DNA of 24,669 nucleotides, taken from the NCBI GenBank assembly GCA_021106765.1, contig JAIOTO010000108.1, positions 1-24,669 on the forward strand. Direction: 5' to 3'. The DNA is from Methanosarcinaceae archaeon. GTDB lineage: Archaea; Halobacteriota; Methanosarcinia; Methanosarcinales; Methanosarcinaceae. Made by a program: the position numbers and the translations under genes. The notes under the pieces were generated by a model that was not told the origin of the DNA, did not search any database, and saw nothing but the letters and a program-made list of their open reading frames with translations. The stretch's first letter is position 1, and each line of letters opens with the position of its first letter. Below are positions 3,014 to 20,106 of the stretch, piece by piece.

Positions 3014-3085
3014 AGCCGCCGGAGAGATTCGAACTCTCGACCTACTGATTACGAATCAGTCGCTATACCACTAAGCCACGGCGGC
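3014..3085 (-). tRNA. tRNA-Thr, anticodon CGU (72 nt, CCA not encoded)
   Basis: The reverse complement folds by hand into a cloverleaf. The acceptor stem is GCCGCCG/CGGCGGC, with U8 and a GCUU D-stem. The anticodon stem is ACUGA/UCAGU with loop UUCGUAA, giving U33, anticodon CGU and A37. The T-arm is GAGAG-UUCGAAU-CUCUC and the discriminator is U. Confidence 0.8.
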
Positions 3086-13615: not shown

Positions 13616-15160
13616 TCACTCAAGCTTTGCACCACATTCCATACAGAATTTCTCATCATCCATTGCTTCCCTGCCACACTGTGGACAAAGGCGTTTTTGT
13701 GCACCTATTTTCGAACGCTGTATGACACTGTCCTGGATCGTTGTTCTATTGATGTTGTACTGTGTGAGACCCTCATCCACAAATATCCTGATATCGATCC
13801 TCCTTTCGATCTCTTCAAGCATCTTGTGATAGAAACCGGTAAGTGCATCTTCCTTCTCAGCCCACGTTTTCAGGATCAGACGGGATCTTCGTTTGCCCAC
13901 CACTTCAACGTAGGCTGCATACCGCATGTCTGCAATACCCTCCGCATAGAACCTTGCAACACCTGTGAACAACTGCGGAGTGGAAGTTATTTCGGGTTTG
14001 ACCATATACATGTTCATATCCCTGAGGACCCTTGTAACGATGTCGAACAGGTTCTCGGAAGGTATTCCGAGATCTTTTGAATCCTCCTCGGCCATAAGCA
14101 TATCACTGACAGCCTGTCTCCATGAACCTTCATCAACCTCTTTGATCTTGAAGACCGGACATATGATAGATATCATCCTGCTGTTCATATCACATCTCTT
14201 ATGTTTTTTGGTGTTATAGTCATAATAACTGATATCACCAGAGACATTACATTCGCCACATTCCCCTGTGGGTCTTATCTTGAACGTAACAGTCTTGCCT
14301 TCATCCGGTTCAAGCATGGAAATGGATAATTCCTTAGTTCTTAGCATGAATACATCAGGAACTAAAAGGTTGATCCTGATGTCACCTATCGGTTCTGTGG
14401 TGTGGTTCTCTACCTTGACCTTATAGAATATCATGGCACCTTTATAATAAAAGGCAGATTTTACTTTAACAAAGCCTGACTCGACCTTTGAGGATGCGGG
14501 TCCTTGTGTTCTTTGTTTGACGGGTGCAGGAACTGTTTTTCCTGACATGGGATTTAGTGATGGAGACGGAACCCCTTTTTTAGATGAAGACTTACTCTCC
14601 CTTCTACGTTTTATCCGTCTTCCCACTTTTCTTGCCACTATAAAAACAAGTATCCAGAACACCACTACCATGACAATACCAACGGCATCCTCCACATTTT
14701 GATCCGTTGAAGAAACATCGGAAACCGGATCGTAAACATAAGTCGGACGGTAGTCAACATCGGCCTTTTCAGATACTGCCGGTATGACAGTAGAACCTGA
14801 ATTACCCATCTTGGAATAATGGTAGATATTTGATATCACAACATAATCAGCATATGAATCTGATCTTGTCTTTACAATATCAAAACTCAGGGTCAGGTAA
14901 TCGTCATCATAATAAAAGCTATCGTCCTTATAATAAATCCAATCGATCAGGACTATCCGGTCTCGTGTTATTGATAACTGCACATAATCATAATATGTAT
15001 CCACAGAAATAACGTTCAGGTAATACCTATCGCTGAGCTCAATTGTTTCCCCTTCCGTCAGTATATACTCATCCACCGCCGGGGCTATTGTAGCATTGAC
15101 AAATATCAGGTTGATCAACACAAACACTTTCAAAATGGTCCCTAGGTCTTTGATCCTCAA
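13616..15160 (-). CDS. Type-I membrane protein: signal peptide, Tyr/Asp-rich extracellular domain, one TM helix, basic juxtamembrane stretch, cytoplasmic domain, and a C-terminal double zinc ribbon (514 aa, TTG start)
   Basis: The N-terminal hydrophobic segment is ILKVFVLINLIFVNATIAPA. The TM helix is VGIVMVVVFWILVFIVA, followed by RRIKRRRESK. The C-terminus is CPQCGREAMDDEKFCMECGAKLE. An SD (AGGTG) lies 9 nt upstream of TTG at 15160. The first in-frame ATG is about 118 codons in, so the exact start is uncertain. Confidence 0.65.
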   Translation of the reverse strand: MRIKDLGTILKVFVLINLIFVNATIAPAVDEYILTEGETIELSDRYYLNVISVDTYYDYVQLSITRDRIVLIDWIYYKDDSFYYDDDYLTLSFDIVKTRSDSYADYVVISNIYHYSKMGNSGSTVIPAVSEKADVDYRPTYVYDPVSDVSSTDQNVEDAVGIVMVVVFWILVFIVARKVGRRIKRRRESKSSSKKGVPSPSLNPMSGKTVPAPVKQRTQGPASSKVESGFVKVKSAFYYKGAMIFYKVKVENHTTEPIGDIRINLLVPDVFMLRTKELSISMLEPDEGKTVTFKIRPTGECGECNVSGDISYYDYNTKKHKRCDMNSRMISIICPVFKIKEVDEGSWRQAVSDMLMAEEDSKDLGIPSENLFDIVTRVLRDMNMYMVKPEITSTPQLFTGVARFYAEGIADMRYAAYVEVVGKRRSRLILKTWAEKEDALTGFYHKMLEEIERRIDIRIFVDEGLTQYNINRTTIQDSVIQRSKIGAQKRLCPQCGREAMDDEKFCMECGAKLE

Positions 15161-15476
15161 TTTGTGACACCTGTTATCGTTGTTTTATCCTGCTTCTATT
15201 TGTCTCAATTATAATTAAGACCTTCTAATATTCAAAACTTACATTGACCTGCTTCTTCAAATAAACACATTGGAATTGTTACTCAAATATGATCTCACAG
15301 TCCGCACAGAAATTCCTGCCTGATCCCAATTCATGTGTATAATTTAAAACTGACCCTATTGATACCCGTATTGCAGTATTTGTATTTACTATATATATCA
15401 CCAGCTATCTCAGCATCTTTACATAACCAAAACAATACTTTCGACCCGGCTACATAGATAGATATTGCTCATATAT

Positions 15477-16769
15477 TCACATCTTAGTTCCACATTGCCC
15501 ACAGAAGTTAGCTTCAGCCGGTATTGTCGTGCCGCAGGCTGGACATTTGCGAACGCTGGGAGACATTTTTGCCTGTGCAGCACCCATCATCTTCGAGTCC
15601 AGATCCTGTCTTCGATAGGAATCTTCACGTTCACGGTCTTCCACTTTCATCATAAGATCGAGTTTGTCATCCTTTGCTCTTGCCTCGCTTTCCTTGACCT
15701 TGGCCAGTGCTGCGATCTGTTCCGGTGATAGACTGCCAAACTCGCGCCCTTCGCTGATGGTCTTTGCCGTATCAGCACCACCCGCCTCAGTAACAGTTCT
15801 GACATATTCCATATCACGTGCGTGTTCCCGATCCTGCATATCCTGTTCCACTTCAAGCTCGGCGCGCACACCTCTGGCTTTGGAAAGATGCATGTCTTCT
15901 TTTAACTTAAGGGCTTCACGGGCTGCCCTGATGTCCGATTCATCCTCCAGACGTTCGATCTCAAGCTGTGATTTCACACCTTTTAACTGCTGATCCCTCT
16001 CAAAATCCACCCCGGCAGAAACTGTTGCCTGCTCTGCACGAACTCCTGCTACATCCACTCTCCCCGCACGTTCATGATCACCTTCAATGGAAAGTGTATC
16101 CATCTCTTTGAGCTCTTCATGGGTCTGGTATTCGTTCCTCTTCGCCATGACCTCTGCATAGCTTCCAAGATCCCATTGCACCGTGTACTTCATCAATTCA
16201 AGTCCCCACATGGTAAGGGTGGACTTGAGTTGCATCTCCAGTTCGTTCTCCATTGTAAGTTGAAGATCCCGGTTACCGTAGATGTTCTCGATACTCACCT
16301 GTCTTATCTCAGGTTCCAGTACTCTGGTGATAGTCTCGCTCTTAAGATGCTGGTAGATATCCTGAATGGAAAGTGTCCTCTCACCGTTCTTAGCAGGAGT
16401 TGTATAAGAAAAGAACATCTGGAAAAAATGCTTTGGGTCCTGGATCCTGAACCGCAAGAGACCTTTGCACCCCACGTTCTGATCGTCAGAGGTCCACATA
16501 TCAGCGTATTCCCATTCAAGATCCTTTACGGACGTATCCATGAGTGCAACATCGACATCTGCCCTTATGTTACCTGGTTTGAACAAACCACCTACACGCA
16601 GTTTGCCACTATCGATTATTTCTTCGACCACTCCATTCTTGATCATAACGGCCTTTTCGTTGGGGGAAAGTATGATCGATTTGGAGAACACACCGCTTAC
16701 ATCTCTTTTTGATATCACACGGGCAATGTCATCGGACTGCTTTTTCCATTTGAATACCATATTTAGCAC
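15477..16769 (-). CDS. SPFH/band-7-like domain protein with a long charged coiled-coil region and a C-terminal double zinc ribbon (430 aa)
   Basis: The N-terminal ~210 aa have SPFH-like motifs (SPNEKAVMIKNGVVEEII, TSDDQNVGCKGLLRFRIQDPKHF, WGLELMKYTVQWDL). The central ~170 aa are E/R/D/K-rich and predicted coiled coil. The C-terminus is CPACGTTIPAEANFCGQCGTKM. An SD (AGGTG) lies 9 nt upstream of the ATG. Confidence 0.7.
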   Translation of the reverse strand: MLNMVFKWKKQSDDIARVISKRDVSGVFSKSIILSPNEKAVMIKNGVVEEIIDSGKLRVGGLFKPGNIRADVDVALMDTSVKDLEWEYADMWTSDDQNVGCKGLLRFRIQDPKHFFQMFFSYTTPAKNGERTLSIQDIYQHLKSETITRVLEPEIRQVSIENIYGNRDLQLTMENELEMQLKSTLTMWGLELMKYTVQWDLGSYAEVMAKRNEYQTHEELKEMDTLSIEGDHERAGRVDVAGVRAEQATVSAGVDFERDQQLKGVKSQLEIERLEDESDIRAAREALKLKEDMHLSKARGVRAELEVEQDMQDREHARDMEYVRTVTEAGGADTAKTISEGREFGSLSPEQIAALAKVKESEARAKDDKLDLMMKVEDREREDSYRRQDLDSKMMGAAQAKMSPSVRKCPACGTTIPAEANFCGQCGTKM

Positions 16770-16856
16770 ACCTATTATGTTCCTTGATCTTCTGCACCTG
16801 TAGAAAATGAGTTTCCTTATTTACATGTATATAGCAAGTATTATATATAGTGTTTT

Positions 16857-16872
16857 CCATTGTATACAATGG
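16857..16872. promoter_or_regulatory. Perfect 16-bp palindrome CCATTGTATACAATGG in the divergent promoter region, a candidate operator
   Basis: The element is exactly self-complementary. It lies just downstream of the TATA-like box TTATATATAG (16841-16850) and about 32 nt upstream of the start of the small RHH-like gene that heads the ESCRT-like operon. Confidence 0.5.
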
Positions 16873-16903: not shown

Positions 16904-17059
16904 ATGAAAAGATCCTACCCAGTGAGCGCAAGAGTCTCAGAGGATATTAAGCAATATTTAAGTGGACTTGTGGAAATGGGAATGGCAATTAATACATCTG
17001 AAGCATTGAAATTATGCATAAGATATGCCAAACAAAAGAAAATGGAGGAGGAACTCTAA
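16904..17059 (+). CDS. Small ribbon-helix-helix (CopG/Arc-like) putative transcriptional regulator (51 aa)
   Basis: The predicted beta-strand (SYPVSARVSEDI) followed by two helices (KQYLSGLVEMG and TSEALKLCIRYAKQ) fits the RHH pattern. An SD (GGAGAT) lies 5 nt upstream of ATG at 16904; the longer ORF starting at 16850 lacks an SD. Its stop TAA abuts the next ATG, which implies translational coupling. Confidence 0.55.
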   Translation: MKRSYPVSARVSEDIKQYLSGLVEMGMAINTSEALKLCIRYAKQKKMEEEL

Positions 17060-18889: not shown

Positions 18890-19738
18890 ATGACCATTCA
18901 CGAAACCATCCCAGAAGACCTCCAGAGAACCAACCGGAAGACCGTGGTCAGCAATCTGAAAGAGGTCCATACGATAGTTGAACGACTTATCCATCAGACC
19001 TATCGGCAAAAGGATGCAGCTGCAAGTTCCGAACTTCGGGAGATCAGGAACAAGGTGACTTCAATGATTTCGGAGATAGAGAATACAGATCTCGATACCT
19101 TCGGTGGCAGGAAAGGTTCCCTGGATGATTTCTATGATGCCGAAAAGCAGTTCATCGAAAACTCTACCATACTGAAAAAAGAAATGGAAGATGCACTTGC
19201 CTCCGGGAAGGGGGGAGATACATTCTCACTGGACAATATGGTGGATGAACTGGGAAAAAGTTTTAACGAACGGGTGATCCTCACAGGGGAACATCTGCAG
19301 GAATACAGGGCACAGCAAGTGGAATCCAAAAGGGCAAGGGATGAAGCACAAGCCATCAAGACTGAGACAGTAACCGAAACTGAGACCAAAACCGAAACCA
19401 TTGAACAGCCTGAGCCAACTCCTGATCCTGTAGAACCTATCGGGAATATGACCATGGAAATGGATACGGAAACCCTCTCAAACTCTATAACTACATCAAC
19501 ACACTCGAACAGAAATACTCGAAATGTCAGCCGGATATCTCAAATAATGGGAATTACATATCAAACAAAACATGGAAGGTCGACCACACGAACAGGAGGA
19601 TTCGTGGTGTGGTCAAGGACGGCATGTTCAAGACCCCGCTTGTGCTTGAGACGTTCTGGCATCCCAGAGATGACGTACGGGATATCATCCAGTTCGTTCA
19701 GTCAAAAGCAAATGCGATTGGCAGAAACCAGTACATGA
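18890..19738 (+). CDS. Coiled-coil protein with an acidic Thr/Glu/Pro-rich linker; the 3' end is uncertain and a frameshift into the next ORF is probable
   Basis: The first ~185 aa look like genuine coding sequence (helical, charged), ending in TETVTETETKTETIEQPEPTPDPVEP. Beyond about nt 19470 this frame becomes S/R/T-rich and out-of-frame-looking, while frame +1 is open from 19426 and reads as bona fide protein sequence. Confidence 0.5.
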   Translation: MTIHETIPEDLQRTNRKTVVSNLKEVHTIVERLIHQTYRQKDAAASSELREIRNKVTSMISEIENTDLDTFGGRKGSLDDFYDAEKQFIENSTILKKEMEDALASGKGGDTFSLDNMVDELGKSFNERVILTGEHLQEYRAQQVESKRARDEAQAIKTETVTETETKTETIEQPEPTPDPVEPIGNMTMEMDTETLSNSITTSTHSNRNTRNVSRISQIMGITYQTKHGRSTTRTGGFVVWSRTACSRPRLCLRRSGIPEMTYGISSSSFSQKQMRLAETST

Positions 19739-20106
19739 GCCTGTGTCTTGTCAATGATGTCTGGGAAGAAGATATCATTGAGTGGGCAAAGGATTTTACA
19801 CATCAGCGTCTCATCCTGTACCTGTACGATTTGAAAAACGACATTCTCATCGTTAATGAAACACTTGCTGCTGCAGATCACTTCAGGTTCTGGCACACCA
19901 GGGAACTACAGAGAACAACTCTTGATGAGAAAATAGAGGATTACATTAATGAGATAGAGTATTTTACTGTGAAGGATGTTGCCGACAGGTTCGGACTCAA
20001 CCGGTCCGGTTCAGAGGATCTGCTTAAGGGACTGGTGAAGAAGGGGATAATCGTTGATGTGGGCTTTGGCGGAGATGCGAATTATACAAAAACGAAGCAG
20101 CAGTGA
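19609..20106 (+). CDS. Winged-helix protein (C-terminal wH motif FTVKDVADRFGLNRSGSEDLLKGLVKKGIIV); possibly the C-terminal portion of the preceding gene
   Basis: An AGGAGGA SD lies 8 nt upstream of the GTG at 19609. However, the reading frame is open and protein-like for another ~60 codons upstream, to 19426. The C-terminal ~45 aa form a classic helix-turn-helix-wing pattern. Confidence 0.55.
   Translation: MVKDGMFKTPLVLETFWHPRDDVRDIIQFVQSKANAIGRNQYMSLCLVNDVWEEDIIEWAKDFTHQRLILYLYDLKNDILIVNETLAAADHFRFWHTRELQRTTLDEKIEDYINEIEYFTVKDVADRFGLNRSGSEDLLKGLVKKGIIVDVGFGGDANYTKTKQQ

Follow-up and report, generated by a model that had tools for sequence, protein, structure and literature searches.

Very probable members of the Meth_adaptin ESCRT system in a Methanosarcinaceae archaeon: an adaptin-appendage-like membrane protein and an anchorless SPFH protein encoded beside ESCRT-III and Vps4 genes

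[quoted passage not shown] Gene A and gene B are located on the minus strand, and five open reading frames (ORFs) on the plus strand are divergent from gene B (Table 1). The plus-strand ORFs comprise a small gene, genes for an ESCRT-III-like protein and a Vps4-like ATPase, and two overlapping ORFs with a coiled coil and a winged helix. A preliminary description, made from the sequence alone, had noticed two minus-strand genes both ending in CPxCG-x(8-10)-FCxxCG, and both ORFs were found to be present, with a spacing of x8 in each. Judged by their sequences, gene A and gene B are not chance ORFs, because both belong to conserved families. The two genes very probably encode the membrane-proximal parts of the "Meth_adaptin" ESCRT system, a clade described by Makarova et al. 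(2024, mBio 15:e00335-24; PMC10936438) with the locus of Methanosalsum zhilinae as the model. The finding is correct and has already been published as a computational prediction; the window holds another member of a described system and is not a discovery.

Table 1. Genes, domains and regulatory features of the window, with the evidence used for each assignment
Feature	Positions	Strand	Basis
Gene A, 514 residues, arCOG15284, type-I single-pass membrane protein	13616-15160	-	ORF and orthology
Gene A, ectodomain, compact beta-sandwich, residues 31-116, Tyr/Asp-rich	14813-15070	-	AlphaFold model, composition
Gene A, transmembrane helix, about residues 156-181	14618-14695	-	Kyte-Doolittle peak 2.79, flanking charges
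Gene A, cytoplasmic adaptin-appendage-like module: Ig-like subdomain 231-339 and TBP-like alpha/beta platform 344-454	13799-14470	-	AlphaFold model
Gene A, one C4 zinc ribbon at the C-terminus, CPQCG-x8-FCMECG	13619-13693	-	PF13240, 27.0 bits against 25
Gene B, 427 residues, arCOG15283, SPFH domain, long coiled coil and zinc ribbon	15477-16760	-	ORF, Pfam, Foldseek, orthology
Gene B, SPFH domain, residues 1-197	16170-16760	-	Band_7, Foldseek
Gene B, charged helical region, residues 200-394 (about 195 residues)	15579-16163	-	AlphaFold secondary structure, composition
Gene B, one C4 zinc ribbon at the C-terminus, CPACG-x8-FCGQCG	15480-15554	-	PF13240, 29.1 bits against 25
Divergent-promoter core: TATA-like TTATATATA (16841-16849), GTGTTTT, palindrome CCATTGTATACAATGG (16857-16872)	16841-16872	+	Motif conservation
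Small gene, 51 residues, first of the ESCRT operon	16904-17059	+	Conserved start MKRSYPVSARV
ESCRT-III (Snf7/CdvB-like), 189 residues	17060-17629	+	Pfam Snf7 below threshold, orthologs
Vps4/CdvC-like AAA+ ATPase, 383 residues	17701-18852	+	Pfam AAA (4.5e-44) and AAA_lid_3
Coiled-coil gene with C-terminal winged helix (ESCRT-II-like), split by a one-base deletion after 19481	18890-20106	+	Relatives intact
Coiled-coil ORF, one piece of the split gene	18890-19738	+	ORF call
Winged-helix ORF, overlapping the coiled-coil ORF	19609-20106	+	Weak ESCRT-II-type match
tRNA gene	3014-3085	-	Rfam RF00005, 73 bits

The start of gene B was assigned to the ATG at 16760, which is used by all orthologs; a GTG at 16769 is merely the first possible start. 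Homology searches gave 80 homologs at E<=1e-3. Gene B was 51% identical to Mzhil_1285 of M. zhilinae (P0069; E 1.9e-141, 99% coverage), a protein sitting at the published coordinates of WP_013898576, the SPFH component in Makarova et al. 2024, and 61% identical to the member from M. methylutens MM1 (P0053). By homology, architecture and adjacency to the ESCRT-III and Vps4 genes, gene B is a member of arCOG15283.

An SPFH domain had been proposed for gene B in the preliminary description, and this assignment was supported both by profile and by structure searches. Residues 30-194 matched Pfam Band_7 (PF01145) with 34.7 bits against a cut-off of 23.6, and most of the homologs carry a precomputed PF01145. 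When the gene B model was compared with the PDB by Foldseek, each of the top 31 matches was to an SPFH cage protein, with E values from 3e-9 to 7e-6. The best matches were HflK/C (3e-9) and flotillin (4e-9), followed by stomatin, erlin, prohibitin, QmcA and major vault protein, and the alignment with flotillin-1/2 chains extended over 376-387 columns. A sequence-profile search of the PDB with the family alignments of gene B and Snf7 gave only chance-level matches (DARPins, eL40 zinc ribbons, enoyl-CoA hydratase). The charged coiled coil that had been described downstream of the SPFH domain was also found: AlphaFold predicted one 128-residue helix and then two shorter helices, and about 41% of the residues in this region are charged. 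The architecture of gene B fits that of flotillin, HflK-HflC, stomatin, prohibitin and erlin, in which the SPFH fold is likewise followed by a long, wall-forming helix. A highly conserved motif, MM.VEDRER.DSYRRQELD, is located just ahead of the zinc ribbon.

The zinc ribbons of gene A and gene B had been described as double. This could not be upheld, since each C-terminus holds four cysteines, and PF13240 was passed by both proteins (Table 1). The double ribbon family DZR (PF12773) aligned with gene A and gene B only over positions 1-22 or 24-45 of its 45 positions, below the cut-off of 27.3 bits. The ribbon cysteines of gene B are conserved in the family alignment, and the PF13240 ribbon was matched in 55 of 58 gene A family members.

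No membrane anchor was observed in gene B: neither gene B nor 20 other family members contained a 19-residue window above 1.6 on the Kyte-Doolittle scale. The SPFH cage proteins anchor themselves by a transmembrane (TM) helix, a hairpin or acylation, whereas gene B does not; unlike gene B, they carry no terminal zinc ribbon. Membrane association, which had been claimed for the pair, thus holds for gene A with its TM helix and can only be inferred for gene B, because a hydrophobic segment is absent. One homolog of gene B, P0205 (792 residues; 60% identity over 70% of gene B), was found to be fused to a TIR domain (PF13676), an unexpected pairing of SPFH with a signalling or NADase-type domain.

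Gene A is initiated at a TTG preceded by AGGTG, and its product is 100% identical to P0081, a deposited protein from a Methanosarcinaceae metagenome-assembled genome. At E<=1e-3, 229 homologs were obtained. The ortholog in M. methylutens MM1, WP_048205009 (825284-827095; E 1e-178, 47% identity over the full length), directly follows the SPFH gene of that genome and is listed by Makarova et al. 2024 as arCOG15284, "Adaptin appendage domain, ESCRT system component" (PMC10936438). The two arCOG15284 members of M. zhilinae gave remote matches (E 3e-3 and 6e-6). Homology to listed members, together with the Ig-like/TBP-like fold, makes gene A a member of arCOG15284.

The translation-initiation contexts of the two genes had been reported as near-identical. 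AGGTG is common to both, but the first of the reported strings contained one T too many, and the real contexts are AGGTGTCACAAA-TTG and AGGTGTGCTAAAT-ATG. A special shared initiation signal was rejected: AGGTG is a Shine-Dalgarno sequence at normal spacing, which varies among the orthologs (AGGTG, GGAGG, GGGTG). The hexamer AGGTGT showed no enrichment across the window (14 observed, 11 expected by chance).

Gene A agrees with the type-I membrane protein and Tyr/Asp-rich ectodomain suggested for it earlier. The N-terminus has a signal-like hydrophobic segment. The TM helix is preceded by acidic residues and followed by a strongly basic stretch (RKVGRRIKRRR), AlphaFold predicted a helix at residues 156-189, and the same TM layout is seen across the family. 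Because the basic stretch directly follows the TM helix, the N-terminus is placed outside according to the positive-inside rule, which leaves the N-terminal ~130 residues outside and the C-terminal ~325 residues in the cytoplasm. The ectodomain (residues 30-155) contains 15.1% Asp and 14.3% Tyr. In the AlphaFold model, which was built on 58 homologs, the order of the parts is ectodomain (residues 31-116), TM helix, a disordered Ser/Pro/Lys linker, Ig-like subdomain, platform and zinc ribbon. The pLDDT (predicted local distance difference test) was 93-97 over residues 31-110 of the ectodomain, and the beta-sandwich is followed by a disordered stalk (residues 117-155). The ectodomain is swapped in homologs for PEGA, S-layer, CARDB-like, beta-propeller or TPR domains; several of these ectodomains are of the S-layer type (PEGA, PF07752).

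The most informative feature of gene A is its cytoplasmic adaptin-appendage-like module, which was overlooked in the preliminary description. Only residues 238-293 matched Pfam Alpha_adaptinC2 (PF02883), with 17.5 bits against a cut-off of 27.6, and the sequence identity to the appendages of AP-2 alpha/beta, AP-4 beta and COPI gamma/beta was 6-9%. The resemblance to the eukaryotic adaptin/COPI appendage is structural. Gene A has no HEAT/trunk region and, in contrast to AP-2, AP-4 and COPI, neither an adaptin trunk nor a heterotetramer; its module is joined to the TM helix, and is thus tethered to the membrane, and the protein ends in a zinc ribbon, unlike the AP/COPI appendages. Three cysteines of the Ig-like subdomain, Cys301, Cys304 and Cys334 (TGECGEC ... 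ICP, about nt 14157-14260), and likewise His445 were found to be invariant in the 58 family members. These residues may form an extra metal site or a disulfide in the appendage module.

On the plus strand, the ESCRT-III-like protein shares 73% identity with its counterpart in M. zhilinae. Proteins at the same position in M. zhilinae (WP_013898574) and M. methylutens (WP_048205007) are assigned to arCOG00454, and the ATPases at the Vps4 position of both species to arCOG01307, Vps4 (PMC10936438). Snf7 was matched by 13 of 14 orthologs of the window protein, with a best E of 5.6e-5. The Vps4 gene starts with TTG after GAGGTG/GGGGTG in most loci, a conserved non-ATG start, and gene A likewise starts with TTG. 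The coiled-coil/winged-helix gene is unbroken in L003, the nearest relative, and forms a single gene of 399 residues in M. zhilinae. Over this gene the DNA of the window and L003 is 83% identical with exactly one gap, where CTCTCAA-ACTCT in the window corresponds to CTCTCAAGACTCT in L003. A weak Pfam match to EAP30/Vps36 was obtained for the winged-helix part.

The ATPase bears on a possible role in cell division, in which ESCRT-III and Vps4 would serve cytokinesis, as they do in Sulfolobales, and gene A and gene B would be membrane anchors analogous to CdvA. ESCRT-III-based division arose more than once in archaea (2025 review), and the best specific full-length NCBIfam alignment of the window ATPase was with CdvC, of which positions 1-360 of 370 were aligned at 243.9 bits against an equivalog cut-off of 650 bits. 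A CdvA-like protein was, however, absent from a Pfam scan of the window. Methanosarcinales divide with FtsZ, and variable, duplicated receptor ectodomains are ill-suited to a role in division. In archaea that divide with FtsZ, ESCRT is considered likely to make vesicles, the adaptin-type proteins serving for cargo binding (Makarova et al. 2024; PMC10936438). A function as cell-division accessory was therefore given hardly any probability.

The Meth_adaptin system consists of Vps4, ESCRT-III, a coiled-coil and winged-helix protein, an SPFH protein with coiled coil and zinc ribbon, and ProX; it also has a pair of adaptin-appendage proteins, of which one carries a zinc ribbon and the other is joined to GOLD by a TM linker (PMC10936438). 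The same gene set as in the M. zhilinae model locus, with an ESCRT-III-like and a Vps4-like member, was observed in the window, and in both the SPFH gene is divergent from the ESCRT-III gene. The loci differ in the appendage genes. The SPFH gene of M. zhilinae is followed by type-II proteins, appendage-TM-ProX and appendage-TM-GOLD, and the zinc-ribbon appendage protein, apparently without a TM helix (no Pfam match), lies after the winged-helix gene. In the window, gene B is followed by a single type-I protein (ectodomain-TM-appendage-ribbon), and the 24.7 kb contain no GOLD or ProX protein, unlike M. zhilinae. The "ProX" of M. zhilinae (L001:11700-13586, CP002101) was found to be a continuous ORF, called in GenBank with 628 residues, of which only the last 275 are annotated in RefSeq. 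The appendage region of the GOLD protein shares 44% identity with the first ~286 residues of this ORF, and the OpuAC domain covers residues 379-619. Because the appendage region is fused, ProX is another ectodomain on the appendage-TM chassis and not a free-standing protein.

Conservation of the locus was studied with a gene B family-profile scan of one genome per species, which gave 41 loci, all in Methanosarcinales. Protein look-up supplied, in addition, the loci of M. zhilinae and M. methylutens MM1 and that of a Methanoperedens-type contig. Linkage was counted by mapping the window proteins onto the loci, with the loci that had enough sequence as the denominator, and the counts apply within Methanosarcinales; greater evolutionary depth rests on published tables. 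The loci span Methanolobus, Methanococcoides, Methanomethylovorans, Methanosalsum, other Methanosarcinaceae/Methanosarcinales and Methanoperedens-type genomes. Linkage to the Snf7/Vps4 pair, as expected from the preliminary description, was kept in other genomes. Just upstream of gene B and divergent from it, the small gene was present in 36 of 36 loci and ESCRT-III (Snf7) in 35 of 36. An A-type gene followed downstream of gene B on the same strand in 32 of 36, and Vps4 was adjacent in 27 of 32. In some loci, additional inserted genes separate Vps4 from the winged-helix gene, and in the Methanoperedens-type loci the winged-helix gene is found on the gene B side. The number of A-type copies varied from 0 to 3-4 per locus, and tandem arrays with differing ectodomains stand directly after gene B. 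Four loci (L033, L028, L042 and L045; Methanoperedens-type and others) have 2-4 tandem A-type genes with, for example, an NHL propeller or PEGA.

The flanking genes, including housekeeping genes, differ between the loci. Since the junction of gene B and ESCRT-III is kept despite this shuffled neighbourhood, functional coupling can be argued. The alternative, in which gene A and gene B are not coupled to ESCRT at all, gene B being a general SPFH microdomain organiser or a protease regulator in the manner of HflK/C or stomatin and gene A an independent receptor with inherited adjacency, would agree with the label 'regulator of protease activity HflC' that some databases give to gene B homologs. 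It would also agree with the restriction of all loci to one order-level group and with the absence of relatives outside it in the word-indexed profile search: this second search with the gene B family profile added almost nothing, with a gap from E 1e-94 to 1e-11 and no match beyond Methanosarcinales. Nevertheless, this alternative was considered very improbable. The gene B/ESCRT-III junction remains in 35-36 of 36 loci while the rest of the neighbourhood rearranges, conservation is higher in the promoter region that they share than in the proteins, and a protease gene of the FtsH or NfeD type was not detected beside gene B in the loci inspected. The published tables, which list arCOG15283 members in other lineages (Methanocorpusculum, Natronolimnobius, marine group II), likewise treat arCOG15283 as an ESCRT component (PMC10936438).

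The promoter region between gene B and the ESCRT operon contains a palindrome that had been reported from the sequence, and the palindrome, CCATTGTATACAATGG, is real. A 30-nt motif, TTATATATA-N-TGTTTTCCATTGTATAC, was kept in 33 of 36 loci, despite flanking proteins that are only ~50-70% identical, and was present even in Methanoperedens-type loci with ~50% identical proteins. The conserved part of the palindrome is the left arm and centre only (TGTATACA core). The position of the CCATTGTATACAATGG region, ~9 nt after a TATA box, suggests a probable operator, one that would cover the site where transcription of the ESCRT operon begins. The small gene that follows starts at the ATG at 16904, with a GGAG 5 nt upstream, and is called as 51-52 residues in M. 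methylutens and in the Methanoperedens-type contig. A longer ORF call of 69 residues (GTG at 16850) was rejected, the upstream conservation being that of a DNA operator and not of a coding region. Weak similarities to RelB, AbmR-C and Mb1296_C suggest that the product is probably a ribbon-helix-helix (RHH) DNA-binding protein. The 51-residue gene is missing from the tables of Makarova et al. 2024 (PMC10936438). Together, the RHH-like gene and the near-invariant promoter/operator motif point to dedicated regulation of the locus, and the TGTTTTCCATTGTATAC site next to the 51-residue gene would probably serve in autoregulation of the ESCRT operon.

The closest functional precedent for gene B is YdjI of B. 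subtilis, to which, together with SPFH cages, the SPFH component was also likened by Makarova et al. 2024 (PMC10936438). YdjI is an anchorless SPFH protein with a C-terminal zinc-finger motif (Scholz et al. 2021, PMC8581546). [quoted passage not shown] Both gene B and YdjI are thus anchorless SPFH proteins with a C-terminal zinc finger, encoded beside genes for an ESCRT-III-superfamily protein and for membrane proteins; the likeness is one of architecture and gene context only. The PspA-YdjG-YdjH-YdjI system differs in having PspA instead of a Snf7-type ESCRT-III, and has no Vps4, adaptin-appendage or winged-helix parts.

By analogy with these systems, a tentative mechanism can be proposed for the locus, in which a gene B scaffold held by gene A would position ESCRT-III and Vps4. 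On the cytoplasmic side of the membrane, gene B would assemble as an oligomer shaped like a flotillin or HflK ring or dome. Since gene B has no anchor, A-type receptors would be needed to hold it at the membrane, as YdjG/H do for YdjI, and gene B is probably dependent on them. The scaffold and the coiled-coil/winged-helix protein would then position ESCRT-III polymerisation around a patch containing A-type receptors and the ligands of their ectodomains. Remodelling of the polymer by Vps4 could release the patch as a vesicle that buds outwards, away from the cytoplasm, or could reseal it. The small RHH-like protein would probably repress the operon via the conserved site at the transcription start. 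This mechanism was judged plausible, with somewhat less than an even chance of being right, whereas the identity of the two genes and their membership of the system are held with high confidence; identity and mechanism taken together are moderately probable. The single island for membrane remodelling that had been suggested earlier agrees with the conserved linkage and with the conclusion of Makarova et al. 2024, its function resting on comparative evidence.

The closest characterised analogue of gene B could equally be taken to indicate envelope stress. YdjI is encoded in the sigma-W operon pspA-ydjGHI and is needed for PspA foci at the membrane (PMC8581546), and SPFH cup oligomers are discussed as activators of PspA (2025 review). 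In a Psp-like stress and repair module, the gene A ectodomains would sense damage to the envelope or S-layer, gene B would mark the lesion, ESCRT-III would seal it and Vps4 would recycle the polymer. Inducible control, as suggested by the RHH-like gene and the tightly conserved operator, would suit such a module, and so would the S-layer-type ectodomains (PEGA, PF07752) of the homologs. However, Vps4, the ESCRT-II-like winged-helix protein and the adaptin-appendage hubs are absent from bacterial Psp and are sorting machinery in eukaryotes, and relatives of gene A carry cargo-type ectodomains (GOLD and the ProX solute-binding domain). The repair module was therefore regarded as rather unlikely. 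Because the ectodomains are exchangeable and duplicated, and because GOLD and ProX variants exist, there is a tilt towards sorting and budding over pure repair.

Several observations weigh against the assignment to a working Meth_adaptin system with a sorting function. The window Snf7 protein reached only 15.9 bits with PF03357, against a cut-off of 27.3, in an alignment that spans positions 4-157 of 171, and the PDB sequence-profile search of the Snf7 family gave no ESCRT-III match. Vps4 was not adjacent in four Methanoperedens-type loci, where no Vps4 was found near the Snf7 gene, or in L025, where it is ~6 kb off. All loci belong to one order-level group, and the synteny could be partly inherited and not selected. 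The frameshift at 19481 may be a sequencing or assembly error, or may mark a real pseudogene in a decaying system. The spacer between gene B and gene A (15161-15476) is 316 bp in the window; in L003, a relative with 94% identity, it measures ~185 bp, and most loci have ~100-190 bp. Gene A and gene B may possibly not be co-transcribed. Experimental work on the Meth_adaptin system was not found in the literature searched, and a 2025 review holds no data on it.

If A-type proteins act as receptors in sorting, the conserved cytoplasmic appendage and ribbon combined with varied ectodomains, including the type-II GOLD and ProX variants, would suggest a receptor repertoire, in which each swappable A-type receptor would select its own extracellular or envelope ligand and deliver it to the flotillin-like cage and ESCRT-III, switched by the RHH repressor. 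This extended proposal is speculative and, as a whole, unlikely. If true, it would represent a complete prokaryotic pathway of cargo receptor, adaptor, coat and scission, and cultivable methanogens would provide a working model of a pre-eukaryotic link between adaptin ear, flotillin and ESCRT. The general receptor idea is already found in Makarova et al. 2024; the regulatory switch, the logic of receptor arrays and the anchoring of gene B by gene A would be new.

The locus represents one of few non-Asgard systems that unite three components of eukaryotic membrane traffic: an SPFH scaffold of the flotillin type, a hub resembling an adaptin ear, and ESCRT-III/Vps4. Its cultured carriers (Methanolobus, Methanococcoides, Methanosalsum) could open the early evolution of cargo sorting to experiment, a case made in the 2024 paper. 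Added here are the anchorless nature of gene B, the modular tandem ectodomains, the 51-residue RHH-like gene with its near-invariant motif, the frameshift and the fusion of ProX to an appendage region.

With regard to the setting, the genes of the window are chromosomal and not part of a mobile element, because housekeeping genes lie around the region (pyruvate phosphate dikinase-like, sugar kinase, HerA, diphthine synthase, thermosome). A known anti-phage defence system was not supported: PADLOC gave nothing for gene A or gene B, and only generic AAA matches (IetA, TRIP13) for Vps4. The tRNA listed in Table 1 was the only Rfam match in the window at the gathering threshold, with none in the intergenic regions. 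The spacer between gene B and gene A contains a TATA-like stretch and, at 15202-15221, a palindrome of 11 nt, and it may hold a promoter of gene A's own.

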